Positions 4,809 through 25,980 of a stretch of DNA of 64,000 nucleotides are shown here, in pieces. Both the position numbers and the translations under genes were made by a program. The first letter of the stretch is position 1, and each line of letters opens with the position of its first letter. Source of the DNA: Shigella phage ESh26. The notes under the pieces were generated by a model. It saw only the letters and a program-made list of their open reading frames with translations. It made no database searches and had not been told where the DNA came from. The DNA lies in the sequence record ON528736; one strand, written 5' to 3'.

Positions 4809-5014
4809 TACAAAAAGCCTCTCTTGAATTCGACTTGCTTTTCGCCATAATCATATCGAATCTCTGCATTAAATTCGACAGAACCATCTGCGTACATCAT
4901 AAATGAATGCACAACAACTTCTGTAGACCATGGCTGCAGTTCATATTTTTTCATTACATGCCGTGAAATGATAATATCTAAATCTTCATTTGGTTTAATC
5001 CAGCGATTTAACAT
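4808..5014 (-). CDS. hypothetical protein
   Basis: 68-aa ORF downstream of promoter 5041-5070. Confidence 0.4.
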   Translation of the reverse strand: MLNRWIKPNEDLDIIISRHVMKKYELQPWSTEVVVHSFMMYADGSVEFNAEIRYDYGEKQVEFKRGFL

Positions 5015-10682: not shown

Positions 10683-11045
10683 TTAAAAGAATTTAAATTT
10701 TTTCTTTGACCTTTTATTAAATGCATCTTGTAGTTGCATTGTAATACATTTTTCTACATGAGGAGCTAACTCAGCTTTTCTTTCTTGGTCAAGAACAGCA
10801 AAGTCCATTACGACTTTTCCATCAACCCAATCTAATTTTGTCACATACACAATGTGTGTAGAACCGTCTTCTAGTTTAATGACAATCTCCTGGATAACAT
10901 TTTCCATGGCAGATTTAATTATCTTAAGAGATTCATTAAAAAGACGTTCTTTTCTTTCTTCTTCCCCCTCCGAAGAGGGGGATTCATCGATAATTTCTAG
11001 ATCTAAATCTAAATCATCTTTATTCATTAAATTCTTCCATATCAC
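10683..11045 (-). CDS. 40: head assembly factor gp40
   Basis: 120-aa ORF between uvsX and 41. Confidence 0.65.
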   Translation of the reverse strand: MIWKNLMNKDDLDLDLEIIDESPSSEGEEERKERLFNESLKIIKSAMENVIQEIVIKLEDGSTHIVYVTKLDWVDGKVVMDFAVLDQERKAELAPHVEKCITMQLQDAFNKRSKKKFKFF

Positions 11046-12201
11046 TTAACTGATCTAGGTCAGTTTCTAAATCAGCTGCTGATTTACTTTTACTTTCTGG
11101 AGATTTAAATTTTTCAACCTTTGAGTTAATCAATTCATCAACTTCAGCTTCAACAATTTCATTACTATCAATAGCACCTAACTGATAAGCACGTTTAATA
11201 GCATCTCGGAATGGCTGATGCTTAAATAAAGGACCCCAGAATGTAGTGCAGTTGGTATCTTTTGCACGCCAAGATTTTTCTTCGCGAATCATCTCACCGG
11301 TTTCTTCGTCAAGAAATTCACGAGCATACCAGCCATTTTTAGGTTTTACCACAAATCCTAATTCTAGAGCCATATCTAACAATCCAGAATAAGGATCGAT
11401 GCCACCGTCAAATTTAACATCAATAAAGAATTTACTTTTTTCTTTAACGGTACGAGATTTTTCTACATTTAGAACAAATTGATACCCCTGAAGATCAGAA
11501 CCATCTTTAATCTGGCGCTTACCGATAATGAATACGGTATCAGCCGAATACATTACGCCTGTACCACCTGTCATCACGGTTTTACTAAACATTTCAATTG
11601 TTTCAATTGTATGGTTAACCGCAACGCATGGAATGTTTTTAATACTAAAATAAGGAGTAACAATACGGAATAATGACTTCAGTGATTTAGCACGAGTCAT
11701 ATCTGCTACAGATTTTTCATTCAAGGCATCTTCCGTTTCTTTCTTAGAAGCCATATTACCGATTGAGTCGATGAATACAATAACTTTTTCACCGCGCTCA
11801 ATAGCTTCAAGCTGATTCACCATATCAATTTTCAGCTGTTCAACTGACTGAATTGGTGTATGAATTACTCGTTCCGGGTCAACTCCCATGGATCGCAAAT
11901 AAGCTGGAGTAATACCAAATTCGCTATCATAAAATAGACAAACCGCGTCAGGATATTTGTTCAAATACGCCGCAACCATAGTCAAAGACATATTTGATTT
12001 AAAGTGTTTAGAAGGACCTGCAAAAATGGTTAAACCAGACTGCATACCACCATCAATCGCACCAGAAATAGCGATATTAAGCATTGGGATTTTTGTACGG
12101 ATTACATCCTTTTCATTAAAGAATTTAGATGCAGTCAGTTCAGCAGTCATTTTAGAAGTGGAAGCTTTAATCAAACGGGATTTTAAATCTGCAATAGACA
12201 T
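11020..12201 (-). CDS. uvsX: RecA-like recombinase UvsX
   Basis: 393 aa; MSIADLKSRLIKASTSKMTAE..., RecA fold motifs. Confidence 0.95.
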   Translation of the reverse strand: MSIADLKSRLIKASTSKMTAELTASKFFNEKDVIRTKIPMLNIAISGAIDGGMQSGLTIFAGPSKHFKSNMSLTMVAAYLNKYPDAVCLFYDSEFGITPAYLRSMGVDPERVIHTPIQSVEQLKIDMVNQLEAIERGEKVIVFIDSIGNMASKKETEDALNEKSVADMTRAKSLKSLFRIVTPYFSIKNIPCVAVNHTIETIEMFSKTVMTGGTGVMYSADTVFIIGKRQIKDGSDLQGYQFVLNVEKSRTVKEKSKFFIDVKFDGGIDPYSGLLDMALELGFVVKPKNGWYAREFLDEETGEMIREEKSWRAKDTNCTTFWGPLFKHQPFRDAIKRAYQLGAIDSNEIVEAEVDELINSKVEKFKSPESKSKSAADLETDLDQLSDMEEFNE

Positions 12202-12278
12202 TCATTTTTTCCATAGGCATCATTATATTTTCCTCACTGGTTAAAGATAGAGTAATTATAACACAATAAATTTAGGCA

Positions 12279-13127
12279 TTAATCGACTGCTATTGGATGA
12301 ATAGCATTAAACTTATGAAACGCTTCTGATTTTTCTTTGCGTGAAACACACATGCGAAGAACCTTTAATGGCTCGTCTTCTTCACCCAACGATTTTCTCT
12401 TTTCGATATTCGATGTTTTCCAACGAGCTTGCTCTGGAAACTCTCTATTGATTTGCTCAAGAGCTCTATTATGTTTTGAATTACTACGAATTGAACTACA
12501 TCCGCCAGGAGCTTGTGCTTTTCCAGATACAACCAGATATTTGAACAAGGCCAAATGCGGATAACCTTGATTAATTAAATTGAGAAATGCATACATATCT
12601 TCGCATAAATCAATTTTTCCATACCCAATTTGTTCTGTCGTGAGTTTTCCAAGGTCATACCATGTATTCGTGAATCCATATGAATTTTCACGATAATTAC
12701 CCCAAGATGAAGTAATTTTAAAAATTGGTAGACGAGCATGGCCATGATAATACCCACAATCCATGGCATCTTCAACGTATTGAATCAATTCATAGAACTG
12801 TTCACGAGTTAATTGATTAATTTTATCTACACAGCGACGATCATCTTTCTTTCGCATTGAACTCATACGAATAGTAGTATCATCGTCAATCATCCAGATT
12901 CGTTGACCTGCATACATATCAGTAATTGCTTTACGAGTACCAGCAATTCCATTAACATCATCAGGAATAGTTATAATTTTGGCTTTAGACCCGTAAGCGT
13001 CATAATAAGCTTTTTCTTCGTGTTCACGTACTACAATATGAGGTTCATAATCAGTCGGAAACATATCAAGGGCAGAAACTGCCCCTACGCGTTGATAGCT
13101 TGGAATTACGAATTGAATCATTTCCAC
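12279..13127 (-). CDS. glycosyltransferase, GT-A-like; candidate beta-glucosyl-HMC-alpha-glucosyltransferase
   Basis: 282 aa with DxD-type motif RIWMIDDDTT; sits where T4 has 351-aa beta-gt. Confidence 0.55.
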   Translation of the reverse strand: MEMIQFVIPSYQRVGAVSALDMFPTDYEPHIVVREHEEKAYYDAYGSKAKIITIPDDVNGIAGTRKAITDMYAGQRIWMIDDDTTIRMSSMRKKDDRRCVDKINQLTREQFYELIQYVEDAMDCGYYHGHARLPIFKITSSWGNYRENSYGFTNTWYDLGKLTTEQIGYGKIDLCEDMYAFLNLINQGYPHLALFKYLVVSGKAQAPGGCSSIRSNSKHNRALEQINREFPEQARWKTSNIEKRKSLGEEDEPLKVLRMCVSRKEKSEAFHKFNAIHPIAVD

Positions 13128-13858
13128 TCACCATTATAATCTTTTTTCACAATATGAGTTTCGCCAGTATTCCACCAATGATCAACCAAGTAAAAATGAC
13201 GAGAATATACATGAAGACTTCCAACATTCCATATAATAGAACCTGCTTTATACTGACGAGTTGAATCACCTGCATTCAAATCAGATACTAATTTATCTAG
13301 TACGTATTTTTGCCATGCATAATCATTACGGAATCCGAAGACAACGTCATTTGAACGCATGCTCACTACTGCATTGACTTTCTTATCACGAATCAGGTAC
13401 TGTACTGTATTCGTACACATGAAATCTGACATACCATCTTTATTGTAGTCAAACTGCATGGATGGACGAGTATAAATCATGATACCGCGTCGAGAATCAG
13501 GATTTTGACCAAGTTCAGCTAAACACATATCATATTGGGCATAGTTATCTTCTGACCAGATGGCCCAACCATAATTCGAATTAATTTCGCCTTTAGAAGA
13601 TGCTACCTGTTGCCAAATCTTCGGTGTTTCACCTGGAATATCTTTAACAAACAAACTTTTAGATTTATACCATTCAAGTTCACGCTGAATGTATTCATCA
13701 TTAAGAGCGCCAAAAATAAATGGTTCATCTGCTACAAATGATGCGCCAATAATTTCAATAGTTTTAACGCCAGTTTTATCAACTACGAAATCTTTTTCCT
13801 TTAATGCAAGCCCCAAATGAAGACGGATTTCTTCAACTGTCATAGAGTCACTAATCAT
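13118..13858 (-). CDS. 42: dCMP hydroxymethylase gp42
   Basis: 246 aa; thymidylate-synthase-like; T4 gp42 size and sequence. Confidence 0.95.
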   Translation of the reverse strand: MISDSMTVEEIRLHLGLALKEKDFVVDKTGVKTIEIIGASFVADEPFIFGALNDEYIQRELEWYKSKSLFVKDIPGETPKIWQQVASSKGEINSNYGWAIWSEDNYAQYDMCLAELGQNPDSRRGIMIYTRPSMQFDYNKDGMSDFMCTNTVQYLIRDKKVNAVVSMRSNDVVFGFRNDYAWQKYVLDKLVSDLNAGDSTRQYKAGSIIWNVGSLHVYSRHFYLVDHWWNTGETHIVKKDYNGEWK

Positions 13859-13865
13859 TTAAACC

Positions 13866-14015
13866 TCAATTGATACATTCATATTTAACTTGTAACAGTA
13901 ATAAACCCCAACCTATAATAAGTGTCGGAATCATACAAGGAACCGTTACGCTATAGTATATACTTATTATAATCATCAAGATTAAAAGCAATACTGCTAA
14001 AATTTTGCTTTTCAT
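13866..14015 (-). CDS. small membrane protein
   Basis: 49-aa ORF MKSKILAVLLLILMIIISIYYSV... below table cutoff; ATGA overlap with imm stop. Confidence 0.3.
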   Translation of the reverse strand: MKSKILAVLLLILMIIISIYYSVTVPCMIPTLIIGWGLLLLQVKYECIN

Positions 14016-14263
14016 TCCTTCTCTCTGATGATAATTACTTGATTCGGTTGTGCAGATTTTTTAGTTTCACCCGCAATTGACCAAATAAATGTAATAAACC
14101 AACCAATAATTGACCAATTAAACAGTAAAGATGTGAAAAAGATTCCTACTGTCGATTTTGACCCACGCATCAAGGCGATGAACCACGGAAGCATGTATAT
14201 AATGATAGCCAACACGCCTGAAACTAAAACCATAAAAATTGAACCTGCTACTAAAGTTTCCAT
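14012..14263 (-). CDS. imm: immunity (superinfection exclusion) membrane protein
   Basis: 83 aa, two TM segments, position after gene 42. Confidence 0.6.
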   Translation of the reverse strand: METLVAGSIFMVLVSGVLAIIIYMLPWFIALMRGSKSTVGIFFTSLLFNWSIIGWFITFIWSIAGETKKSAQPNQVIIIREKE

Positions 14264-14661: not shown

Positions 14662-14919
14662 TCAAATACAAGCAGTAATTACTCCAGTAGTGCTTACACA
14701 GGTATTACCTAATTGAACACCAAGCGTTCCATTAGTATTCATATGAAGATTATCATCAATTTTTGTTGATACTTTACCATTCATGTGAATAACAGTATTA
14801 GATTCAATCACATTCTGAGTGTCATTTTCAATATCAATAAATGGAACAGCTGCTAATGCAACTAGAACAACTGCTAATGCAACTAAACACGCTGCTAAAC
14901 AACCATAAACAATTTTCAT
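14662..14919 (-). CDS. small membrane protein
   Basis: Start moved to MKIVYGCLAACLVALAVVLVALAAV because promoter 14952-14985 and terminator lie inside the longer ORF; GGAG RBS. Confidence 0.5.
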   Translation of the reverse strand: MKIVYGCLAACLVALAVVLVALAAVPFIDIENDTQNVIESNTVIHMNGKVSTKIDDNLHMNTNGTLGVQLGNTCVSTTGVITACI

Positions 14920-14951
14920 TTTATTCTCCAAATCCGTATCAGTTGATAGTT

Positions 14952-14985
14952 GTATAGTACCATGGAAGAACAGAGATGTAAACCG
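14952..14985 (-). promoter_or_regulatory. early promoter, conserved cassette copy
   Basis: gtaaac 14978-14983, atagta 14954-14959; near-identical to copies at 41413-41446 and 56596-56630. Confidence 0.6.
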
Positions 14986-15066
14986 TTTTGTGAAAAAATT
15001 TTTAATGAATTTACAGGACCTAGAATCATCTATTTTTCCTAAGTATAGATTTATATTACTTGTATG

Positions 15067-15087
15067 AAAAAGGGACCCGGAGGTCCC
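15067..15087 (-). terminator. intrinsic terminator after gene 43
   Basis: Hairpin gggacc-cgga-ggtccc with U-run. Confidence 0.65.
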
Positions 15088-15100
15088 TAGATTTATTCTA

Positions 15101-17797
15101 TCAGCCAAACAGGAAGTCTAACGAAGCTTTTTCCTCATAGTCCATACCTGCCGATTCACACATACCCGCAAGCGGTTTAACAAACGATTTTTGGAACAAA
15201 GTTGAGTAGTCAATCCAAGACAGTACGTCAGAACGAATTTCTTTTGGAAGTTCTGTACCCGATGGCCAAGCAATGCACTTATCACCAAATGGATTTCCTT
15301 CACGCAATGGAAGAACCATTACCTTATTTCCATCCAAAATTGGAGCTACACCTAAACCACTAACAGCTCGACGATAAGTTAGCACACCACGAATATGGAA
15401 CGGACATTTAAATCCTGGCCACCCTTTATCATCATATTTCGCTATATCGTTCGCAGTTTTTACTTCAGCAATAACTTTATAGTCAAGTTGACGATATTCT
15501 TTCTCAAAGTTCTTGTAATATTCTTGGACAGACTCTTCACCTTCCTGAAGAATACGACGAATACTTTCTTCGAGAGCTTCTTGTACTGCTTTTGGTGTTG
15601 AACTCTGTTGAGTTTCCATACCCATAATTTTTAGATGCGGTTCGGCAAATCGCTTATCTTCCATATCATAAACGTTCAGAGCATAACGTTTTTTCGCTTT
15701 CCAAAATCCACCAACACCCTTTGAACCAAGTGGAGGGCAAGAAATAGCTTCACGGTCCATATGCATCAGATGCTCGCGGTTATTCATATAATCACATAAC
15801 TCACGATATGCAACATCAATCATAGGTTCCATCTTTTTCTTACCAAACTGATTCATGAATTCAACTAAATCATTTTGTTCTTTAAAGCGATCAAGACCTA
15901 CTTTTTCAATAACTTTATCTACACAGACATATACCGAATCAGTATCACCTGCTGCGATGAAATCTTCACCATTAGTTCCACATACTTTATTCAGATATTC
16001 ATTAATTTTGCGAGCAATCCACTGAATACCGACTTGACCGAAAATTGTGATAGCAGTAGCATTTCGCAAATCATAGTAACGGAAATGAATATTACCAAGA
16101 GCACCATAAAGACTGTTAATAAGAATTTTACGGTTCAGCTGATTTGTGTTAGCAAGTGTAGCTGCTTTTTCACATTCTTCGATCAGACTATTAAGAACAG
16201 ATTCGGTGTAATTCGATAATTCGTTTAAGAAATCATCACTGAACTTAACATATCGTTCAACTTCTGGTTTAGTTGAGCAAGACCCTGCACCTTTCATAAT
16301 AATCTTTTTAATAGCTTCGGCATTCATTTCTTCCGCGAACATTTTCTTTTTCCAATCTTTACGCTGGAAAAATACTTTAGCGATTTCCTTTGGAATGATA
16401 CCTTCTTGGTGCTTATCATACATCCATCCATTCGGAGAGCAAGAATATTCATCACTTGGCTTAGGAGCTGTTCCTGCGATATATTCATGAATTGGATGAA
16501 CTTTAAACTGCCCGCGAATAGTCTCAGGACTAATGTTAACCTGACGAATAATGCTAGGATACAGAGACGTCAAGTCAAAACTCATAATGTATCGACGAGC
16601 AATCGGTTTAGGTTCAAATACAAATGCACCTGGAAAACTCTGTTTAACGTGCGAACCTTGTTGAGGAATAACCTTATGTTCACCTTTCAGTGAGTTAAAA
16701 ATAATAGCATCCCAAGTTTTAATAGGACTCATTACACCAGAAAAAGGCATTTTAGCGTAATAAGACATACTTAAAACTAGATCGATAAACCCACGAATTT
16801 TATCAATTGCTTGAACTGATTCTACGTCAATGATGTTATAACTAATGTATCGTTGATGATTAGTCTCACGAAGTTTATTAATAGGACCATCGTACGGCAA
16901 TTTACCTTTTTTGGTTTCATGTTGAGCAACTGATTCCAAAGAGAACGATGGCAAATTAGTAAATGCGAACTTCTTGTATAAATCTAAATAATCAAGAATA
17001 GATACGCCATCAATAGAATAAATTTCTTTGCTACCGTACATATTTTGAATTAGTTTAGATTTTACTCGACCGATTGGAGAGAAGCGTTTCATACTGCGTT
17101 CACCGAGAACCATTTTAACACGGTTCATGATATACGGAACGTCAAATCCCTCAATATTCCAACCAGTAAAAATAGCAGGTCGTTTCTGTTCCCAGAGATT
17201 AATATATTCCATGAGCATATCACGCTCATTATCGAATGGCATATAAATTACTCGGTCAAGAATTTCTTGAGGAACTTCATCACCACCTTCACAGTCAAGC
17301 TTAGCAGCTAACTTTGCATCCCATTTTGATACTGAACCGTACATTGAATTCAACAAATCAAAGACGTAAAAACGATCGTCAATTGAATCATAATGAGTGA
17401 TAGCATCAATTTCATATTCTGCTTTCATTGGGTCAGGAAATTTATCACCAGTAACCTCAATGTCACAGTTAGCTACACGAACAAATTTTCGGTCATAAAC
17501 AATTTCTGAACCATATGTATCACTGATATAAGCGAGTTTAAAATCGTTCATACCGAGAGCTTCGAGACCGATGTCTTCCATTCGCTTCATCCAGTCTCGT
17601 GCATCTTTCATTGATGGAAATTTTTGAGGAGCACAGTTTTTACCATAAATGTCTTTGTATTTTGACTCTTCCTTACAATGTCTAAACATAGTCGGAAGAT
17701 ATTCTACTTCACGAGTACGTTCCTTTCCGTTTTCATCAATATAACGCTCAACAATATTATTTCCGACTGTTTCGATAGAGATATAAAATTCTTTCAT
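15101..17797 (-). CDS. 43: DNA polymerase gp43
   Basis: 898 aa, family B polymerase with 3'-5' exonuclease; T4 gp43 size. Confidence 0.95.
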   Translation of the reverse strand: MKEFYISIETVGNNIVERYIDENGKERTREVEYLPTMFRHCKEESKYKDIYGKNCAPQKFPSMKDARDWMKRMEDIGLEALGMNDFKLAYISDTYGSEIVYDRKFVRVANCDIEVTGDKFPDPMKAEYEIDAITHYDSIDDRFYVFDLLNSMYGSVSKWDAKLAAKLDCEGGDEVPQEILDRVIYMPFDNERDMLMEYINLWEQKRPAIFTGWNIEGFDVPYIMNRVKMVLGERSMKRFSPIGRVKSKLIQNMYGSKEIYSIDGVSILDYLDLYKKFAFTNLPSFSLESVAQHETKKGKLPYDGPINKLRETNHQRYISYNIIDVESVQAIDKIRGFIDLVLSMSYYAKMPFSGVMSPIKTWDAIIFNSLKGEHKVIPQQGSHVKQSFPGAFVFEPKPIARRYIMSFDLTSLYPSIIRQVNISPETIRGQFKVHPIHEYIAGTAPKPSDEYSCSPNGWMYDKHQEGIIPKEIAKVFFQRKDWKKKMFAEEMNAEAIKKIIMKGAGSCSTKPEVERYVKFSDDFLNELSNYTESVLNSLIEECEKAATLANTNQLNRKILINSLYGALGNIHFRYYDLRNATAITIFGQVGIQWIARKINEYLNKVCGTNGEDFIAAGDTDSVYVCVDKVIEKVGLDRFKEQNDLVEFMNQFGKKKMEPMIDVAYRELCDYMNNREHLMHMDREAISCPPLGSKGVGGFWKAKKRYALNVYDMEDKRFAEPHLKIMGMETQQSSTPKAVQEALEESIRRILQEGEESVQEYYKNFEKEYRQLDYKVIAEVKTANDIAKYDDKGWPGFKCPFHIRGVLTYRRAVSGLGVAPILDGNKVMVLPLREGNPFGDKCIAWPSGTELPKEIRSDVLSWIDYSTLFQKSFVKPLAGMCESAGMDYEEKASLDFLFG

Positions 17798-24761: not shown

Positions 24762-24779
24762 AAAGGGCCGAAGCCCTTT
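24762..24779 (-). terminator. UUCG-loop hairpin after alpha-gt
   Basis: aaagggccgaagcccttt. Confidence 0.55.
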
Positions 24780-25980
24780 ATTTTGTAATAATGTCAAACT
24801 GTTCTTTAAAGCAGAAGCTTGAATCTTGATGCTGATACAAAAATTCATAAGCTTTTTCGCGTTCACGGTCATAAAGAGCTCGGTCAGATGACAGTTCTTT
24901 AATACGCTCAAATGTTGATTCCATGTCATTTTCATCAAACCAAACGATACCGCTATCATGAGAAATTAACGGAGTATTATCAACACGGAATTTTAAATTT
25001 TCGCCAGTAGATTTCCAAAATACCGGAATTGTTCCGCACGCACCAAGCTCGAGATGAGTATATTCTAAAGAACGTTGTAGATATTTTTTGTCCAACTTAC
25101 TCAACTGATAACCAAATCCGGATTTACTCATGCGTTCAAGCATTTCGCTATTTACATAACGGTCGAGAATTTGCGTTGGCAAATTAGGAGCAATTTTAAT
25201 TTGGTCTACTTGATGAAGACGATAATACTCGTATGGAATTCCTTTTTCTTTAATAGGAATGAACGCTGGAGAACGTTCCAGACCTTCCATAATAGTACTT
25301 AGTCCAGCAGGTTTAAGATGTTTTTCGTGAAAATCAAACATCTGATAAAAGCCTTTCCATGTAGTCGTACGACCAATCCAACGGTTGACATTCATGTTAA
25401 TTTCAGAAACATCTTTCCAGTATGTTGATCGAACTTTCGCAATATCCATAGGAGGCTGAAAGTTGTATACGGTCGGTGCTTCTTCAATATCATCAAACAG
25501 AGAAACTGTTTCTGGATACCATTCTTTCATCAGAACTTTATTAAAATCACCATTATCAGAATGACTAAAAATAACATCAGCTCGGCGAACAGTTTCTTCT
25601 AATCCCAAATTTCGACGCAAAGAAAGAGAAGAATGGTCATGTTGATAAACTACAACACGAACCGAAGGTTTAATGTTATCAATAATTTTTTTATAGTTAT
25701 TAATAGTGTCTTCTTCGACTGAAGTAGCAGGAACTGAATTGATAATTAGAATATCACAATCATTTACCAGCTTAAGTGTTTTATCGTATTCTTTTGCCAA
25801 TAAAACCGGAATTGAAAATGATTTATAATCATGCGCGCAATTACGTGTAAATGATTTATCTTTAGCATAAACCAAAGTTACTTCATGACCATTTTTAATA
25901 AACCAATCACGCTGCTCAAGAGAAAATTTAGTTACGCCGCAACCTTCAAGACCTCGAGCCATAAAAATGCATACTTTCAT
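24778..25980 (-). CDS. agt: DNA alpha-glucosyltransferase
   Basis: 400 aa; N-terminus MKVCIFMARGLEGCGVTKFSLEQRDWF as in T4 AGT. Confidence 0.9.
   Translation of the reverse strand: MKVCIFMARGLEGCGVTKFSLEQRDWFIKNGHEVTLVYAKDKSFTRNCAHDYKSFSIPVLLAKEYDKTLKLVNDCDILIINSVPATSVEEDTINNYKKIIDNIKPSVRVVVYQHDHSSLSLRRNLGLEETVRRADVIFSHSDNGDFNKVLMKEWYPETVSLFDDIEEAPTVYNFQPPMDIAKVRSTYWKDVSEINMNVNRWIGRTTTWKGFYQMFDFHEKHLKPAGLSTIMEGLERSPAFIPIKEKGIPYEYYRLHQVDQIKIAPNLPTQILDRYVNSEMLERMSKSGFGYQLSKLDKKYLQRSLEYTHLELGACGTIPVFWKSTGENLKFRVDNTPLISHDSGIVWFDENDMESTFERIKELSSDRALYDREREKAYEFLYQHQDSSFCFKEQFDIITK

Follow-up and report, generated by a model that had tools for sequence, protein, structure and literature searches.

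In T-even phages, the product of ba-gt, the beta-glucosyl-HMC-alpha-glucosyltransferase, decides whether hydroxymethylcytosine (hmC) in the phage DNA is mono- or di-glucosylated, and hence how susceptible the phage is to defense systems that recognize modified DNA. Roughly 75% of hmC is alpha-glucosylated and roughly 25% is bare in both T2 and T6 (PMC6024577, PMC13160076), and the gentiobiosyl share of hmC is ~5% in T2 (PMC6024577, PMC13160076) vs ~72% in T6; when T6 is deprived of ba-gt, alpha-glucosyl-hmC alone is left (PMC11078745). LC-MS of ten environmental Durham Tequatroviruses that carry alpha-gt together with a TET-associated glycosyltransferase (TAGT) detected hmC, alpha-glucosyl-hmC and alpha-gentiobiosyl-hmC, and no beta-glucosyl-hmC, and in the same study the TAGT gene was explicitly stated to be syntenic with the beta-gt gene of T4 (PMC13390438). 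In nearly all phages with such enzymes, a TAGT accompanies either alpha-gt or beta-gt, and alpha-gt and beta-gt occur together in only 6 of 753 genomes, those of T4 and phages closely related to it; modeled with AF3, the T6 TAGT adopts a GT-A fold, sister to GT2, with TarP as the reference structure, as in the present analysis (PMC13216743). Deletion of ba-gt raises the sensitivity of T6 to the glycosylase Brig1 (PMC11078745), an enzyme that leaves gentiobiosyl-hmC DNA uncut in vitro, and the glucose of gentiobiosyl-hmC is not removable by BapA (PMC13160076); GmrSD still targets gentiobiosyl-hmC. Published work already covers the enzyme, the GT-A fold, the synteny of the gene with T4 beta-gt, the formation of gentiobiosyl-hmC and the effects on Brig1 and BapA, and the locus described here adds nothing new.

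The DNA analyzed here is a 64-kb window (the whole stretch under study) of the ~167-kb genome of Shigella phage ESh26 (ON528736), an ordinary Tequatrovirus that matches several sequenced phages at ~97.6% identity across 25 kb. The window contains a minus-strand open reading frame at 12279-13127 that we identify, with high confidence, as the Tequatrovirus ba-gt gene (also ggt or g-gt; Pfam TAGT), the orthologue of the T2 and T6 genes, operating in the gentiobiosyl-hmC pathway proposed below. The original prediction of a 282-aa protein between uvsX and gene 42 was right about the position; the length of 282 aa results only from reading the frame from the GTG at 13127, and the start is likely the ATG at 13121, which yields a protein of 280 aa (MIQFVIPSYQR...). 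This ATG is preferred because it overlaps the TGA stop codon of gene 42 as ATGA, because GGTGAG lies 5 nt upstream of it at a suitable Shine-Dalgarno spacing, and because the orthologues of T2 and phage IsaacDaniel are annotated as 843-bp coding sequences from the equivalent ATG; the GTG start, with an unusable Shine-Dalgarno spacing, was rejected. The resulting coding sequence (12279-13121, minus strand, 280 codons plus stop) is delineated by the open reading frame itself, the annotation of the orthologues and the matches to PF20691 and PHROG 842.

The ba-gt gene occupies the same slot as in T2 and T6. Upstream of it lies gene 42 (13118-13858, minus strand), which encodes the dCMP hydroxymethylase that makes the hmC precursor, and the cassette is flanked downstream by the gene of the uvsX recombinase (11020-12201, minus strand), both in synteny with T6, T4 and IsaacDaniel. 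Beyond gene 42, the window continues with imm, imm.1 and the DNA polymerase gene (gp43). An open reading frame between imm.1 and gene 43 (14662-15108, minus strand) encodes 148 aa with a hydrophobic N-terminus when read from a TTG codon, and more likely ~85 aa from an internal start (MKIVYGCLAAC...); only a short gap is present at this place in T4, and small hypothetical genes in T2 and IsaacDaniel.

Comparison of the window with T4 (NC_000866) by blastn showed that homology ends at 12189 and restarts at 13136, leaving a segment without DNA homology to T4 at 12190-13135; the cassette therefore measures 946 bp here vs 1,941 bp in T4, where it holds segA and beta-gt. The original prediction had correctly placed beta-gt in this slot of T4 and made no mention of segA, the homing endonuclease gene between uvsX and beta-gt in T4, which is found neither at 12190-12278 nor elsewhere in the window. 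No relatives of T4 beta-gt or segA were detected by tblastn in the 64-kb window (best E for beta-gt, 6.5), and the absence of beta-gt is accordingly established for the window, that is, for 64 kb of the ~167-kb genome. A scan of positions 11900-14100 yielded 12 promoter-like sites, vs 10.4 in shuffled sequence, and a single terminator-like site, vs 0.9, so neither count rises above background and no regulatory element is proposed. The terminator scan flagged a 9-bp hairpin, GGGGCAG-TTT-CTGCCC, with a weak T-tract at 13067-13087 (minus strand), within codons 12-19 of ba-gt; this hairpin is identical in T2, T6 and IsaacDaniel.

Over its full length, the ESh26 protein is identical to T2 ggt at 275 of the 280 residues (98%, five substitutions) and to the T6 protein at 274 of 280 (98%, six substitutions). 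The protein matches PHROG 842, 'beta-glucosyl-HMC-alpha-glucosyltransferase' (E 4.9e-89), and aligns end to end with the Pfam TAGT profile, PF20691 (residues 3-207 on profile positions 2-205 of 205), at 38.8 bits, above the gathering cut-off of 27.5; its homologues carry a precomputed PF20691 assignment. Given that this score is modest, the T-even enzymes form a divergent branch of the TAGT family, in which ESh26 is further distinguished by the source of its acceptor, namely, the thymidylate-synthase-like hydroxymethylase gp42 together with alpha-gt, not the TET/JBP dioxygenase pathway. The agreement with the T2 and T6 enzymes extends to the length of 280 aa, the locus between uvsX and gene 42, the co-occurrence with alpha-gt and gp42, and the motifs; ESh26 differs from the sequenced T6 stocks in being free of their private lesions, and from T2 in lacking its private His11. 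The identification is based on orthology, synteny, predicted fold, conservation of motifs and presence of alpha-gt, and we infer the chemistry and its extent from relatives.

A diverged T4 beta-gt was considered as an alternative identity and rejected: the best BLASTP match has an E-value of 3.3 over 8 residues, and tblastn against the window was negative. Strong similarity to T4 beta-gt, the result that the original prediction had named as speaking against it, is absent, and alignment to the T2 and T6 transferases, which it had proposed as a check, gave the near-identity described above. The T4 enzyme (GT-B fold, 351 aa) has in common with ba-gt the genomic slot, the UDP-glucose donor and a beta linkage on phage DNA, but lacks sequence similarity to it, has a different fold, and uses bare hmC as the acceptor, whereas the acceptor of ba-gt is alpha-glucosyl-hmC.

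A sequence search of the PDB with ba-gt returned chance matches only (E of at least 0.75), and because sequence comparison detects no relative with a solved structure, the fold had to be predicted. The homologue search produced 11 clusters at 90% identity, and ten full-length TAGT homologues, from 99% down to ~30% identity, were aligned. The AlphaFold model has a mean pLDDT of 72.7 and a pTM of 0.75; the N-terminal 80 residues are modeled at 80-93, and two stretches, residues 196-211 and the C-terminus, appear disordered (pLDDT below 50). With an alignment of only 10 sequences, the model is of moderate confidence. It predicts a GT-A fold, with a single Rossmann-like nucleotide-sugar domain and GT-A enzymes as the nearest structural neighbors, and with the DxD-type residues D79-D80-D81 at the end of a beta-strand (residues 74-79). 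Together with the published model of the T6 enzyme (PMC13216743), this agrees with the initial assignment of the protein to GT-A-type enzymes, as does the segment RIWMIDDDTT, which had been singled out for its DxD-type motif and is indeed present in the frame.

Three conserved elements stand out in the alignment and the model. The DDD of RIWMIDDDTT corresponds to residues 79-81 of the protein read from the ATG (12879-12887, minus strand); all three aspartates are invariant and lie at the end of strand E74-79 at a pLDDT of ~88, and we predict that they constitute a DxD-type motif for binding of a metal and the UDP-sugar. At the N-terminus, the strand and loop FVIPSYQR (residues 4-11; 13089-13112, minus strand), with invariant I6, P7, S8, Y9 and R11 and with strand E2-6 in the model, resembles the (S/T)xYN(R/K) nucleotide-binding start of GT2-type enzymes and may bind UDP. 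The pair E174-D175 (in 'CEDMY'; 12597-12602, minus strand), with D175 invariant and E174 nearly so among the 10 aligned sequences, may correspond to the 'ED' motif that supplies the catalytic base in inverting GT2-like enzymes. The DDD, D175 and R11 remain unchanged across homologues down to ~30% identity. GT2 enzymes invert the anomeric configuration, and an inverting GT2-like mechanism would fit the formation of a beta linkage from UDP-alpha-glucose. The GT2-type GT-A enzymes used for comparison (TarP, 6H1J; TarS, 5TZE; BcsA, 4P00; AvpGT, 9JMA) share 6-14% sequence identity with ba-gt, from which they differ in the acceptor, a sugar on duplex DNA in the case of ba-gt, and in having no counterpart to its 70 C-terminal residues, which are basic and poorly modeled.

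The partner enzyme is retained, as originally noted: the minus-strand frame at 24778-25980 is intact, encodes 400 aa and matches the T4 DNA alpha-glucosyltransferase (PDB 1XV5) end to end (E 7e-257), so that it can be assigned as alpha-gt, the enzyme that makes the alpha-glucosyl-hmC acceptor. The pathway established for the relatives would, by analogy, run in ESh26 as follows. The gp42 hydroxymethylase would produce hm-dCMP, leading to incorporation of hmC into phage DNA, and about three in four hmC residues (~75%) would then receive an alpha-linked glucose from alpha-gt. To this glucose, ba-gt, as a GT-A enzyme with a DxD motif and a probably inverting mechanism, would add a second one from UDP-alpha-glucose through a beta-1,6 linkage, producing gentiobiosyl-hmC. 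The hmC out of the reach of alpha-gt, roughly 25%, would remain unglucosylated, because no beta-gt is present to modify it.

The expectation of a 'T2/T6-like' modification is supported by the LC-MS of other Tequatroviruses that harbor the same gene pair (PMC13390438), but this label spans the ~5% gentiobiosylation of T2 and the ~72% of T6, and because such different outcomes come from nearly identical enzymes, the extent of gentiobiosylation cannot be read from the presence of the gene. The ESh26 orthologue might therefore act weakly, in the manner of T2, so that the DNA would contain mostly alpha-monoglucosyl-hmC and bare hmC and only a small percentage of gentiobiosyl-hmC. We consider this unlikely. 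Although the T2 gene is 98% identical and nevertheless accompanies only ~5% gentiobiosyl-hmC (PMC6024577, PMC13160076), and ESh26 agrees with T2, not T6, at positions 40, 55 and 106, the ESh26 protein shares Arg11 and Pro251 with T6 and the other family members, only T2 records have His11, and all ten Durham Tequatroviruses contain substantial gentiobiosyl-hmC, from ~40% to two thirds (PMC13390438). Occupation of the beta-gt slot could also be taken to mean that the enzyme does the work of T4 beta-gt with another fold, attaching glucose straight to bare hmC and not to alpha-glucosyl-hmC; TAGT homologues are found in phages that have neither alpha-gt nor beta-gt (PMC13216743), so that some members of the family must use other acceptors. 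For ESh26, such an activity is highly improbable, given that T2 and T6, with enzymes 98% identical to this one, keep ~25% of their hmC unglucosylated and contain no beta-monoglucosyl-hmC (PMC11078745, PMC13160076), that T6 without ba-gt retains only alpha-glucosyl-hmC (PMC11078745), and that beta-glucosyl-hmC is missing from the Durham phages (PMC13390438). Finally, lesions in ba-gt are known from laboratory stocks, where T6 has an amber mutation at codon 10 in one case and a DDD motif short of one Asp in another, but the chance of the ESh26 frame being a pseudogene or staying unexpressed is next to negligible, with a frame intact from ATG to stop, every invariant residue in place, and a start translationally coupled to gene 42. 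The reading of the ESh26 gene as an active orthologue that extends alpha-glucosyl-hmC is thus preferred over all three.

Within that preferred reading, the substitutions that separate T2 from ESh26 bear on the extent of the modification. From the window to T2, these are R11H, K46R, K92R, I101V and P251S; in the 10-sequence TAGT alignment, Arg11 is invariant and Pro251 nearly invariant, and T2 alone has changed at both positions, which ESh26 keeps. A 30-nt probe for the His11 codon (codon 11 is at 13089-13091 of the window) matched 8 records, 7 of T2 and 1 of the T2-sized phage SV76, and His11 is confined to T2 and T2-derived records, whereas the Arg11 probes matched at least 154 records in all, at least 123 with the codon context of ESh26 and a further 31 with the T6-type context. 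A tentative explanation of the ~5% vs ~72%, which we regard with more doubt than belief, is that R11H, possibly together with P251S, renders the T2 enzyme hypomorphic. ESh26 would then resemble T6, and because it keeps the consensus Arg11 and Pro251, we infer that a gentiobiosyl-rich pattern like that of T6 or the Durham phages is to be expected. Should the T2 enzyme indeed be hypomorphic, the ba-gt genotype at positions 11 and 251 would predict sensitivity to defenses specific for alpha-glucosyl-hmC, such as Brig1 and BapA.

The T6 records themselves are heterogeneous at this gene. In MH550421 (L001; region 4924-4976), codon 10 of ba-gt is an amber codon (CAA/CAG to TAG), and the gene is annotated from Met20 with 261 aa. 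In AP018814 (L004, 4135-4974; identical to RefSeq NC_054907), the DDD is one Asp short (GATGATGAT to GATGAT), a loss that is also seen in phage HP3.2. Each of these two independent T6 genomes carries a private change in ba-gt that is probably damaging, and since T6 serves as the textbook example of a phage rich in gentiobiosyl-hmC, the activity may be weakened or gone in some laboratory stocks. A mutant sequence may also underlie models that start from the T6 protein of RefSeq.

By megablast, 479 phage records carry ba-gt at 90-99% nucleotide identity, mostly phages of Escherichia, Shigella, Yersinia, Salmonella and Citrobacter, and most of these genes are annotated as beta-glucosyl-HMC-alpha-glucosyltransferase. 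The T4-type beta-gt was found in 29 records, nearly all of T4 or close derivatives. These counts, along with the published survey (PMC13216743), indicate that alpha-gt plus TAGT is the common state among Tequatroviruses and that T4 is the exception. The ESh26 gene is ordinary, being in the usual state of T4-like coliphages, and with the same gene in about 480 sequenced phages, its value as a discovery is nil. The description of the enzyme as one that replaces T4 beta-gt holds with respect to the shared slot and the lack of similarity to beta-gt, and fails with respect to the direction, the T4 arrangement being the rare one. The associated expectation of an altered sensitivity to modification-dependent defenses has been borne out in relatives for Brig1 and BapA (PMC11078745, PMC13160076). 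That ESh26 falls into the common class with alpha-gt plus TAGT, and not into the T4 class, is of use for annotation, choice of hosts and design of therapeutic cocktails.

Public annotation of the two enzymes is crossed in places: the T4-type beta-gt of RB55 (KM607002) and RB59 (KM607003) is mislabeled 'beta-glucosyl-HMC-alpha-glucosyl-transferase', and the TAGT gene is named 'b-gt' in the T2 record LC348380/NC_054931, so that product names alone are unreliable for separating beta-gt from TAGT.
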